In this document: in pieces, positions 14,832 to 17,221 of the stretch | Layout of the letters: each line of letters opens with the position of its first letter | Position numbering within the stretch: the stretch's first letter is position 1 | Sequence record: OM141125.2 | Length of the DNA stretch: 54,250 nt | Origin: Pseudomonas phage PP9W2 | Direction: 5' to 3' (one strand) | Notes under the pieces: generated by a model | What the model was told of the DNA's origin: nothing | The model's database searches: none | Seen by the model: only the letters and a program-made list of their open reading frames with translations | Position numbers and translations under genes: made by a program

Positions 14832-15179
14832 GTGGCTGAGACCTTTTCTTACTGTACCCGCCTTGGAGCTAGCGGCGAGATTGCCCAGCGCACCTGGCAG
14901 AACGACTTCGGGGATGGATACGTTCAGTCCGGCGGAACGGGGATCAACACCAGATCCGAGATCTGGGATGGAATGACGATCATCGGGCGCCTGGAGGCTG
15001 GTGATGATCTCCTGGGCGCCCGCGCCTTCCTGGACCGGCACGAGGGGTATAGGTCGTTCCTATGGACGCCCCCTGGCGGCGCACAGGGTCGATACCGGTG
15101 CAATGGATACAAGCTGAGGCCGTTGGGTGGAGGGCTGTACGAACTGAGTTTCACGTTCGTCCAAGTCTTCTACCCGTAG
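14832..15179 (+). CDS. minor tail protein (lambda gpM-like)
   Basis: 115 aa immediately after the tape measure gene; GTG start; gpM-like size and sequence. Confidence 0.6.
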   Translation: MAETFSYCTRLGASGEIAQRTWQNDFGDGYVQSGGTGINTRSEIWDGMTIIGRLEAGDDLLGARAFLDRHEGYRSFLWTPPGGAQGRYRCNGYKLRPLGGGLYELSFTFVQVFYP

Positions 15180-15216
15180 CAACCAACCATGAGCGGTTAT
15201 GCCGCGGGAGAGAGGA

Positions 15217-15375
15217 ATGAACACCCAAACTACCACCAAAGGTCAGGCTATTAAAAGCCAAGCTGTAGACTCGAAAGGAAATCCAGCTTGGCTTTTACGC
15301 TCTGACGGTCAAATCGTGATTTCGGCGCAGTTCGTAAAAGATAGCGCCGTGACCAAAGCTGTTATTCGCGGTTGA
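15217..15375 (+). CDS. small hypothetical protein (52 aa)
   Basis: MNTQTTTKGQAIKSQAVDSKGNPAWLLRSDGQIVISAQFVKDSAVTKAVIRG with a strong GGGAGAGAGG RBS; below the track cutoff. Confidence 0.3.
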   Translation: MNTQTTTKGQAIKSQAVDSKGNPAWLLRSDGQIVISAQFVKDSAVTKAVIRG

Positions 15376-15761
15376 TATTTGGGATATCAAGAGTGTAAGT
15401 TCTTGGTATCACTCCGTCCGGAAATACCTTTTGGAAAATCTCTAGCACGAAGTTATCTCCTACACCTTGCTGCCTGCATGCCAGTGAAGCTTTTCGGACG
15501 ATGTGTCTTTGTTGGCTGCAAGAATCTTCTGTCGAGTCAGGGTGCCTCTGATAAATTCAAGACAAAGCATAAATCTCGGAGCGAGTTGAATGAGCACTTT
15601 TGCTTGTGAGTCCAACATGAGGGAGCTCTCAATGAGCACAGGTCGGCCCATTGAGGAGCTAAAGCAGGTAGTCGTGACTGAGTTAATGGTCAAAGCCGCG
15701 ATGGATTATGTGCTCGGGTTATGGGATCGGGATGTCGACATTTTCCTGCTAGAGGATGTGT

Positions 15762-16379
15762 TCAGGATAATGGCAGTTCTTCAGCCTCGGCCTCTGGATA
15801 TTCCAAAATTGACGAGCGCACCTTCTCAATGAGCTTGTCGAACTTGGATAGCGATGCCGATTTAATTTCATCTGGAACACCGCATTCCAACAGCCCAGCA
15901 ATAATGCCGAGCAGGTAGTAAACCTGCATTAAGTCGAGCGCGATTTTTCTAAGTTCAAGCAACGTTAGCGTTTCTGAGTAGGGCGTTCCGTCACTGTTCC
16001 TCTTTGTTGGATGGTAGATAGGGGCCTCGTCCTTGCCCTCTGGTGATAACCCCCAGGCCCAATGGACGATCTTGTTTCTCTGCGCCGTCATCTTCTTGAA
16101 TGTGGACAGAGCGACATTCAGCCTTTCCGGTATGTCGATCGGTAACGGCGATGTTTCGAGAAGCTTTGTGACCGTTGCTGCTAATGAGGTCGAGCGGAGC
16201 CTTAATGATTCTACGACGACCGACTGGGTATCCGCTCTTAGTCCGCTTAGAAAACCGAATATCCGCATGAGCGGTTCATCGCACAGGCTGTGATTGACCA
16301 CGATCTGCCCGATTTCTGCCCGCATGGCAGAGTTTGGGCCCGCGTCGTATCTATAGTTTGTGGTTCTTGGGTCTTCCAT
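15762..16379 (-). CDS. HEPN-motif protein (Rx4H: AQRNKIVHWAW), candidate abortive-infection toxin
   Basis: 205 aa helical protein on the opposite strand, inside the M-L junction of the tail operon. GGAGG RBS before MEDPRTT. Local GC is about 48% against about 63% elsewhere. Confidence 0.5.
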   Translation of the reverse strand: MEDPRTTNYRYDAGPNSAMRAEIGQIVVNHSLCDEPLMRIFGFLSGLRADTQSVVVESLRLRSTSLAATVTKLLETSPLPIDIPERLNVALSTFKKMTAQRNKIVHWAWGLSPEGKDEAPIYHPTKRNSDGTPYSETLTLLELRKIALDLMQVYYLLGIIAGLLECGVPDEIKSASLSKFDKLIEKVRSSILEYPEAEAEELPLS

Positions 16380-16480
16380 TCCGCTTGCCTCCTCGGCCCC
16401 TGGTCTCATCCAAGCACGGGAAGCTACCGCCAGAGCAAACATGCTGCCACTGGCATTTCATCCACGCTGTACAACCTTCC

Positions 16481-16504
16481 AGCCCGCCTCGCGCGGGCTT
16501 TTTC
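16481..16504 (+). terminator. hairpin plus T-run (terminator-like) 16 nt upstream of gpL start
   Basis: agcccgc ctcgc gcgggct TTTTTCAT on the + strand. Confidence 0.3.
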
Positions 16505-16519
16505 ATATCTGGAGAACGC

Positions 16520-17221
16520 ATGGCCTTCAATGCTGATGTGCAGAAGCTTGAGCCGGGGAACCTGATCCGGCTGTTTGAGGTGGATGCGACGCGCCTTGGC
16601 GGAAATCTCTGGCGATTCCATGGCCACGCCCAGGAAGGGGAGATCATCTGGCAGGGAAATGTGTACGAGCCGATTCAAATCACCGCAAAAGGCTTTGATA
16701 TCCGCGGCGATGGTCGACCCGCGTCGCCGACCCTCCAACTGGCAAACGAGCTCGCCGGCATACGAGGAGCGATATCGGCCATCTGCCTTCAGTTGCGAGA
16801 CCTCTGTGGCGCCAGGGTTCGGGTGATCGAGACGTGGCGGCACTATCTGGATTCCGCGAACTTCCCTGATGGCAACCCCGATGCAGCCGACGAGGCTCGG
16901 GTGGGGATCTGGTTCATTGAGCAGAAGACCGAGGAAACCCGGGAGCAGGTCACCTTCGCGCTCAGCAGCCCTATCGACATGGAGGGGCAGATGCTACCGG
17001 CCCAGCAGATCACCAAGCTTTGCCGGTGGGCGTGCCGAGGTCAGTATCGAGGAGAGGCTTGCGCCTATACCGGCGCTGCCCTCTTCACGAAGAAGGATGA
17101 GCCTACCGATAACCCGGCTCTCGATCGGTGCGGCGGCCGCTGGAGCAGTTGCAAGCTGCGCGGCAACACCAACCGCTTCGGCGGTTCTTTGGGGGCAAGT
17201 TTGATCGTTTCGTCGAGGTAA
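16520..17221 (+). CDS. minor tail protein (lambda gpL-like)
   Basis: MAFNADVQKLEPGNLIRLFEVD...; C-terminal Cys cluster CRWACRG...C as in gpL; GGAGAA RBS. Confidence 0.7.
   Translation: MAFNADVQKLEPGNLIRLFEVDATRLGGNLWRFHGHAQEGEIIWQGNVYEPIQITAKGFDIRGDGRPASPTLQLANELAGIRGAISAICLQLRDLCGARVRVIETWRHYLDSANFPDGNPDAADEARVGIWFIEQKTEETREQVTFALSSPIDMEGQMLPAQQITKLCRWACRGQYRGEACAYTGAALFTKKDEPTDNPALDRCGGRWSSCKLRGNTNRFGGSLGASLIVSSR

Follow-up and report, generated by a model that had tools for sequence, protein, structure and literature searches.

A convergent gene pair encoding a likely HEPN protein and its candidate inhibitor forms mobile cargo in the tail-tip operon of lambda-like Pseudomonas phages

RESULTS

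Pseudomonas phage PP9W2 is a lambda-like siphophage of Pseudomonas aeruginosa. In the 54,250-nucleotide (nt) stretch of its DNA analyzed here (record OM141125.2; hereafter the window), the late tail genes M (14832..15179, plus strand; PF05939, E = 6.7e-26; phrog_14) and L (16520..17221, plus strand; PF05100, E = 1e-61) are separated by a gap of 1,340 bp (15180..16519), and it is the cassette filling this gap, with two overlapping genes at its core, that we describe in this work. One of them encodes a HEPN-like protein of 205 amino acids (aa) and lies antisense to the late operon (15762..16379, minus strand; phrog_26374). The other encodes a partner protein of 80 aa on the late-operon strand (15590..15832, plus strand; phrog_25599, E = 4.8e-58) and is convergent with the first, the two 3′ ends sharing 71 nt (15762..15832) that are coding on both strands. 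An initial annotation, made from the letters alone, had already recognized the separation of M from L and the 205-aa open reading frame (ORF) on the minus strand. It also reported a lower G+C content in the gap, which held true, although at 50.4% in the gap versus 60.4% in both flanks rather than at the 48% and 63% given there. Phage vB_PaeS-D14C is 98% identical to the window across the M-L region. When the ORFs of the cassette were compared with Pfam, NCBIfam, and PADLOC, zero family matches were obtained, and PHROGs returned families of unknown function only; a scan of the cassette and four related loci against Rfam gave nothing credible.

As the initial annotation proposed, the HEPN-like gene possesses its own ribosome-binding site (RBS), GGAGG at 16388..16392, located 8 nt before the ATG. 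The longest possible reading gives 226 aa from position 16442, but the methionine of the 205-aa reading is where the PHROG profile and every homologue start. Rather than nearly filling the gap, as had been stated, the gene occupies 618 of the 1,340 bp, which is less than half. Residues 99 to 109 of its product read AQRNKIVHWAW, and the RNxxxH signature pointed out within this segment was found to be above chance. The codons of R101-N-K-I-V-H106 (16062..16079, minus strand) represent a candidate HEPN active site.

Homologues were then collected. A word-indexed search with the HEPN-like protein found P. aeruginosa sequences only, exhaustive phmmer searching yielded 28 cluster representatives, and searching with a profile brought in about 20 others, giving a family of about 50 proteins of about 175 to 220 aa, none of which carries any Pfam domain. 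Among 48 homologues, down to about 20% identity, R101, H106, and L143 are the sole invariant residues, and N102, W107, W109, G24, and F41 are conserved in at least 90% of the sequences. The conserved signature of the family is RNxxxHWxW.

HEPN proteins are defined by an Rx4-6H motif, in which the arginine is usually followed by N, D, or H and which ends core helix 3 and begins the loop to helix 4; in the Csx1 branch, a beta-hairpin comes right after the motif (PMC3710099). The family conforms to this pattern in sequence, with an asparagine following the invariant R101 in at least 90% of the sequences. The position of the motif in the fold was examined with an AlphaFold2 model of high confidence (pLDDT of 93 and pTM of 0.85), in which four short helices are followed by a long helix (residues 83 to 106) that ends with RNKIVH, a beta-hairpin (residues 118 to 139), and two long helices. 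The motif is thus predicted to sit at the C-terminal end of a helix and to be followed by a beta-hairpin, as in Csx1. Furthermore, family members produced weak matches to HEPN families, both in Pfam (HEPN_RiboL-PSP, E = 0.018; HEPN_Cthe2314, E = 0.04; HEPN_MAE_28990, E = 0.24) and in PADLOC (Csx1, E = 9e-4; CARF_HEPN, E = 1.4e-3; Cas13b, E = 0.042), all of them below the curated cutoffs. Models of the Csx1, CARF_HEPN, and Cas13b types accounted for five of the nine PADLOC families matched by members; ten further members were scanned singly against PADLOC, and the members behind the HEPN matches lay outside that set. In an hhalign comparison with Tha-1, the HEPN protein of a Staphylococcus aureus prophage discussed below, residues 17 to 107 were placed on the HEPN domain and RNKIVH on RNSIMH (E = 0.0055; probability, 6.6%). 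Searching viral models with Foldseek gave one match to the HEPN-like protein (E = 3e-4). The predicted model found no match in the PDB by Foldseek, and PDB sequence searches with the protein and the family profile gave nothing useful. Because the motif is conserved, because it occupies the expected position in a confident model, and because weak matches fall on several HEPN families, the 205-aa protein is likely a member of the HEPN superfamily.

If the motif were there by coincidence, the protein could instead be a helical member of a lysogenic-conversion or regulatory pair unrelated to HEPN RNases, which would alter host physiology or prophage expression. Such a role would fit the lack of a significant match to any HEPN profile or solved structure. 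However, of the three positions that are invariant in the family, two belong to the motif, which is sited where a HEPN motif sits, and the weak matches fall on HEPN families far above the share of these families in the libraries. We therefore regard this explanation as improbable.

The leader and promoter region of the HEPN-like gene (16380..16444, minus strand) is a cassette-specific sequence that carries the RBS. In the window, the leader shows no significant RNA structure (z = 0.12). A sigma-54-like element, TGGCAG-N5-TTGCT, which agrees well with the -24/-12 consensus, was noticed on the minus strand at 16449..16434, 55 nt upstream of the HEPN-like start; its GG is changed to AG in the loci of the 82% homologue, and the element probably arose by chance. 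Most relatives from outside P. aeruginosa, about 20 loci (L015 to L017 and L034 to L062; for example, L041:3911-3962), possess a strongly conserved element just 5′ of the RBS of the HEPN-like gene. This element is a hairpin, CCCAGTCCTT-N13-AAGGACTGGG, with the conserved loop GCCTGCAAGCCC, and is often followed by GCGCC-N6-GGCGC. Pairing was found for 90.6% of the alignment cells, with a few compensatory changes (AU to GC, at two pairs). The hairpin is not in the window, and a second copy occurs elsewhere in L034 (near 2150). It could be an RNA leader or an operator.

The initial annotation described the HEPN-like gene as possibly a stand-alone module. To place it in its gene context, we examined 62 loci, 56 of which were fetched additionally and annotated with the tail proteins of the window. 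A convergent and overlapping ORF of the partner family was present in 60 of the 62 loci, with 3′ overlaps of 38 to 107 nt, and the same layout was found beside homologues of the HEPN-like protein that are 82%, 35%, and 22% identical. The partner family has a conserved core, ..VT..M..AA.EY.. and (F/Y)R.M, in which M33, R59, and M61 are invariant. Outside the overlap, the ratio of nonsynonymous to synonymous differences (pN/pS) of the partner is 0.24, and pN was below pS in all 126 pairs examined, indicating that the ORF is under purifying selection. Pairwise identities of the partner and of the HEPN-like protein are correlated (Spearman coefficient of 0.84, with no correction for phylogeny). 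Alternative starts for the partner of the window lie at 15617 and 15632. A helix-turn-helix fold was considered from the N-terminal pattern of the protein and was supported by no tool. These data indicated that the HEPN-like gene and its partner constitute a two-gene module whose members are inherited together.

Pairs of this general kind are known. In the HEPN-MNT (HepT/MntA) toxin-antitoxin pairs of type II/VII, a small HEPN toxin with an Rx4H motif is restrained by its cognate neighbor. The module resembles them in that an Rx4H protein is encoded beside a small neighbor gene, but it differs from them in gene order, since its genes are convergent and not co-directional. It differs in domain content as well: Pfam revealed no nucleotidyltransferase (NTase) domain in any ORF of the cassette. 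The module is thus not a HEPN-MNT pair. The initial annotation was right that no NTase-type antitoxin is visible, but it overlooked the small partner gene, and its stand-alone reading was not supported.

The strict co-inheritance of the two genes raises the question of whether the module serves addiction. In that case, the HEPN-like protein would be a constitutive toxin and the partner an antitoxin made in the lysogen from a promoter in the spacer, and the pair would stabilize the prophage rather than defend against other phages. HEPN toxins with small cognate inhibitors are indeed common (PMC3710099), and in the window, the 214-nt AT-rich spacer upstream of the partner could house a promoter. 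In many loci, however, the longest partner ORF overlaps by 4 nt with the stop of the tail gene that precedes it (K, M, or I) or starts within about 30 nt of this stop. These partners have no room for a promoter and are therefore expected to be transcribed with the late operon. Convergent and overlapping genes are, moreover, unusual for a type II layout, and a simple addiction module does not need to be confined to a late tail-tip operon. Toxin-antitoxin addiction is thus a rather unlikely function for the module.

The confinement just mentioned was seen throughout. In all loci with readable flanks, the HEPN-like gene lies antisense within the block formed by the genes for the tape measure protein and M, L, K, I, and J, and the partner lies in every such locus on the strand of the tail genes, directly 3′ of a tail gene. 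Several junctions of the block are used, namely M|L (the window and 10 other loci), L|K (1 locus), the position after K (about 25 loci), and I|J (about 20 loci). Pseudomonas, Janthinobacterium, and Methylotenera are among the hosts. In the loci with the module after K (L015 to L060), 1 to 2.5 kb separate the HEPN-like gene from gene I and contain one to three ORFs of about 100 to 200 aa (326 aa in L049) on the late strand, which may be ordinary tail genes or further cargo.

Comparison of the M-L junctions of related phages revealed that the cassette is cargo, as had been suggested at the outset. Five related P. aeruginosa phages (U7, 5371, phita81A/5399, D14Q, and PACT201) possess M and L flanks that are 95 to 98% identical to those of the window, and their intervening DNA is different. 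Conversely, a copy that is 99% identical to the cassette, from 15176 to 16506/16523, is present at the I|J junction of other P. aeruginosa prophages, where its ends likewise coincide exactly with the upstream gene's stop codon and the downstream gene's start codon. A version encoding an 82%-identical HEPN-like protein also resides at I|J, and it has only the DNA from about 15560 (start at about 15559 to 15561) to 16520 in common with the window. With different DNA between the same M and L flanks, the 99% copy at I|J, and a G+C content 10 points below that of the flanks, the gap is a mobile cargo (moron) cassette, the core of which is the two-gene module.

Classical lambdoid morons, recognized in comparisons of HK97 and HK022, are cargo genes that lie between late genes and bring along a promoter and terminator of their own. 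The cassette is like them in its presence or absence between conserved late genes of related phages and in its foreign G+C content. It is also inserted exactly between two late genes, the second of which is preceded by a terminator-like hairpin. It is unlike them in that it contains a two-gene convergent module, its boundary sequences are common to different cargos and junctions, and the promoter search was negative.

A location that is always among tail-tip genes could also suggest a structural or assembly component of the tail, conserved in this group of phages. The HEPN-like ORF is antisense to the tail genes, however, and missing from close relatives with the same M and L; its junction is variable and its G+C content foreign. 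The orientation and the pattern of presence and absence among close relatives exclude a structural role for practical purposes.

The boundaries of the cassette were defined from the comparison at M|L (L002 to L005) and at I|J (L019, L021, and L022). The left boundary (15176..15211) is a linker that begins at the stop codon of M; it is kept in all six related phages irrespective of their cargo and is also found 3′ of gene I at I|J. The right boundary (16445..16519, plus strand) contains a conserved 26-nt box (16449..16474). Next come a terminator-like hairpin (16481..16499), whose T-run extends to 16504, and the RBS of L. This boundary is identical in phages with other cargo and moves with the cassette to I|J. 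The hairpin and T-run that the initial annotation placed beside the HEPN-like gene (16481..16504) hence exist on the plus strand as described, but they are not specific to this cargo, being part of a boundary sequence that is kept with other cargos. The 26-nt box recurs, 96% identical, upstream of homologues that are 22 to 35% identical (L010 and L047). Linkers of about 35 bp after the upstream stop codon and about 75 bp before the downstream start codon thus enclose different cargos at M|L and, at I|J, the same cargo as in the window. This pattern suggests that cassettes are exchanged via recombination at these boundaries.

The alternative cargos at M|L were also inspected. Those of U7 (L002:1218-2334), 5371 (L003:1200-1672), and D14Q (L004:1298-1543) consist of a small plus-strand ORF after M that faces one or two minus-strand ORFs, the convergent ORFs overlapping by 4 to 8 nt. 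The encoded proteins gave no match in PADLOC, and the 182-aa cargo protein of U7, considered as a relative of the HEPN-like protein, proved unrelated on comparison. These cargos may be further pairs for defense and self-immunity that belong to other families.

Two further elements separate M from the partner gene in the window. The 52-aa ORF with a strong RBS reported by the initial annotation (15217..15375, plus strand) is present and belongs to phrog_33126 (E = 1e-40), representing a small accessory gene on the late strand. Where the cassette is 100% identical, this ORF accompanies it at M|L as well as at I|J, and it occurs neither in the 82% variant nor in L025. The N-terminal part of its product resembles (32% over 41 aa, E = 5e-6) the start of the 77-aa ORF that follows M in phage U7. 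The 52-aa ORF is followed by the AT-rich spacer (15376..15589; 214 nt, 44% G+C), the ORFs of which have no family match, and no gene is supported there. The public record of D14C contains a 45-aa coding sequence in this region (window positions 15460 to 15597, minus strand), which has no family match, lies in spacer sequence not common to the 82% cassette, and is probably not a gene.

DISCUSSION

Both protein families of the module are undescribed: neither is represented in Pfam, NCBIfam, or PADLOC, PHROGs lists them as unknown, and we found no description of either family in the open-access full-text literature. The design principle that their layout suggests is already known. The initial annotation expected the regulation of the HEPN-like gene to be unusual, and yet comparable layouts have been studied experimentally in Tha/Ith, Tai/Ati, and Tab/anti-Tab. 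What is new here are the protein families, the location in the tail-tip operon, and the cassette boundaries common to different cargos and junctions.

The S. aureus protein Tha is a HEPN RNase, as proven by experiment, and is activated by tail proteins of incoming phages. It is inhibited by the small protein Ith while the phage that encodes both goes through its own lytic cycle, and antisense transcription makes the two states exclusive (PMC11087260). Our module shares with the Tha/Ith system of phage 80alpha a prophage-encoded protein with an RNxxxH motif (RNSIMH there and RNKIVH here) and a small gene on the opposite strand with an overlapping 3′ end (64 nt for tha-1/ith-1 in 80alpha and 71 nt here). 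The two systems differ in several respects. Sequence homology was not detected (E = 0.0055 and 6.6% for Tha-1; E = 0.48 for Ith-1), Tha-1 is a protein of 301 aa with an extra N-terminal region, and the hosts of the present module are Gram negative. Moreover, Tha belongs to the lysogeny module, where it is under the cI promoter, and Ith is expressed constitutively from a separate promoter, whereas the HEPN-like gene resides in the tail-tip operon with its partner probably dependent on late transcription. The location among the tail-tip genes hints that the HEPN-like protein, too, might be activated by tail proteins.

In phage phi80, the gene for TaiEcA, a protein of 204 aa, lies within the Q-dependent late operon in antisense orientation, and AtiEcA, encoded on the late strand, counters TaiEcA; late transcription lowers the expression of Tai, which blocks tail assembly by targeting the central tail fiber (PMC11364771). 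The layout is the same as here, that is, a protein of about 205 aa antisense in the late operon of a lambdoid prophage and an adjacent small gene on the late strand, forming a "noncontiguous operon." We found that TaiEcA (phi80 orf63, L071:4366-4980) and 16 homologues share R95-N96-x-x-A99-H100 without exception, the motif closing a long helix in the prediction, and that the model of TaiEcA, in which the helix with the motif is followed later by a beta-hairpin and another long helix, is broadly similar to that of the HEPN-like protein. TaiEcA also gave weak CARF_HEPN matches in PADLOC (E = 0.004 and 0.012). Judged from these features, Tai may itself be a HEPN-like protein. No nuclease role was proposed for Tai, and the word HEPN never appears in the original paper (PMC11364771), which leaves this possible catalytic motif in Tai proteins unmentioned.

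The likeness can be turned around. The 205-aa protein could be a nonenzymatic blocker of tail assembly that, like Tai, attaches to one of the tail-tip proteins (J, for example) of lambda-like phages invading the cell, with the partner shielding the phage's own protein and with R101 and H106 serving in binding. The size, orientation, counterdefense gene, and tail-fiber target of TaiEcA (PMC11364771), its motif and model, and the constant location of our module among tail-tip genes would all be in line with this idea. Comparison of the two family profiles gave a low hhalign probability, however (2.9% and E = 0.015, over 40 N-terminal columns only), and the phi80 protein was not among the Foldseek viral matches of the HEPN-like model. 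The pairs are also built differently, since tai and ati overlap at their 5′ ends and the genes of our module at their 3′ ends, and Tai lies upstream of the packaging genes, not among the tail genes. Finally, if the motif is an active site, precisely R and H, spaced as in RNxxxH, would be expected to be invariant, as they are. We thus consider binding without catalysis a quite improbable mode of action.

The third system, Tab/anti-Tab of JBD26, is from the same host species. Tab is a minus-strand gene with its own promoter in the late operon, and anti-Tab, on the plus strand, shares 1 bp with the late gene upstream, the two being co-transcribed (PMC10884400). A minus-strand defense gene inside the late operon and a plus-strand antidefense gene, both of these roles being proposed ones here, are what the two systems have in common, a likeness drawn by description and not by sequence. 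They differ in that Tab lies between the terminase genes of a Mu-like phage and targets the tape measure protein, and in that no HEPN motif has been reported for it.

Given that the design is common to these three experimentally studied systems, we favor, with slightly better than even confidence, the reading that the module encodes a HEPN defense effector expressed in the lysogen and silenced in the late phase of the phage's own growth by its co-transcribed partner. The 205-aa protein, we infer, would act as a metal-independent RNase with an active site formed by R101, N102, and H106. Since its gene runs antisense to the late operon, separate signals would drive its expression in the lysogen, where it would act against other phages in the manner of abortive infection. 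Once the prophage itself has reached the late lytic stage, antiterminated transcription of the late genes would yield the partner along with the tail-tip proteins and would also run antisense through the effector gene. The effector could then be neutralized by binding of the partner protein, by transcriptional or antisense interference, or by both, so that the phage would escape its own weapon.

Several observations weigh against this reading. For the effector, no HEPN family reached its curated threshold with the HEPN-like protein or its members, the PADLOC models gave no match to the protein of the window itself, and neither a sigma-70 consensus nor any other promoter was detected for its gene. 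As for the partner, it found no relative in Pfam, PADLOC, or the PDB and has no recognizable fold or family; it shows no similarity to Ith-1 (hhalign E = 0.48; probability, 0.1%), and its role as inhibitor is proposed from analogy and gene layout. In the window, the partner starts 410 nt after M, with the 52-aa ORF and the AT-rich spacer in between, and an own promoter is possible there. The 62 loci perhaps go back to few independent insertion events, five or six.

More speculatively, the confinement to the tail-tip operon could mean that tail-tip proteins are the trigger or the target of the effector. Extending the favored reading in this direction, the HEPN RNase would sense tail-tip proteins, and its inhibitor would be tied, frequently through translational coupling, to those same tail-tip genes that would trigger the RNase, which would explain why the pair is found only inside the M-L-K-I-J operon. 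If Tai were a cryptic HEPN protein as well, Tha, Tai, and the HEPN-like family would represent a single, widespread strategy in which HEPN effectors read phage tail proteins. We put this forward as a tentative proposal that is more likely wrong than right.

Should the favored reading prove true, the module would be a Gram-negative, lambda-like counterpart to the few worked-out prophage pairs for defense and self-immunity, and one that occurs in numerous P. aeruginosa prophages as well as in other Proteobacteria. That the module resides strictly in the tail-tip operon provides a direct and testable idea of what it senses, and its occurrence at several junctions, within conserved cassette boundaries, points to a way in which phages may exchange cargo of this sort. 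Where phages are used as therapy against P. aeruginosa, prophage effectors of this kind may help decide which phages grow on a given strain.

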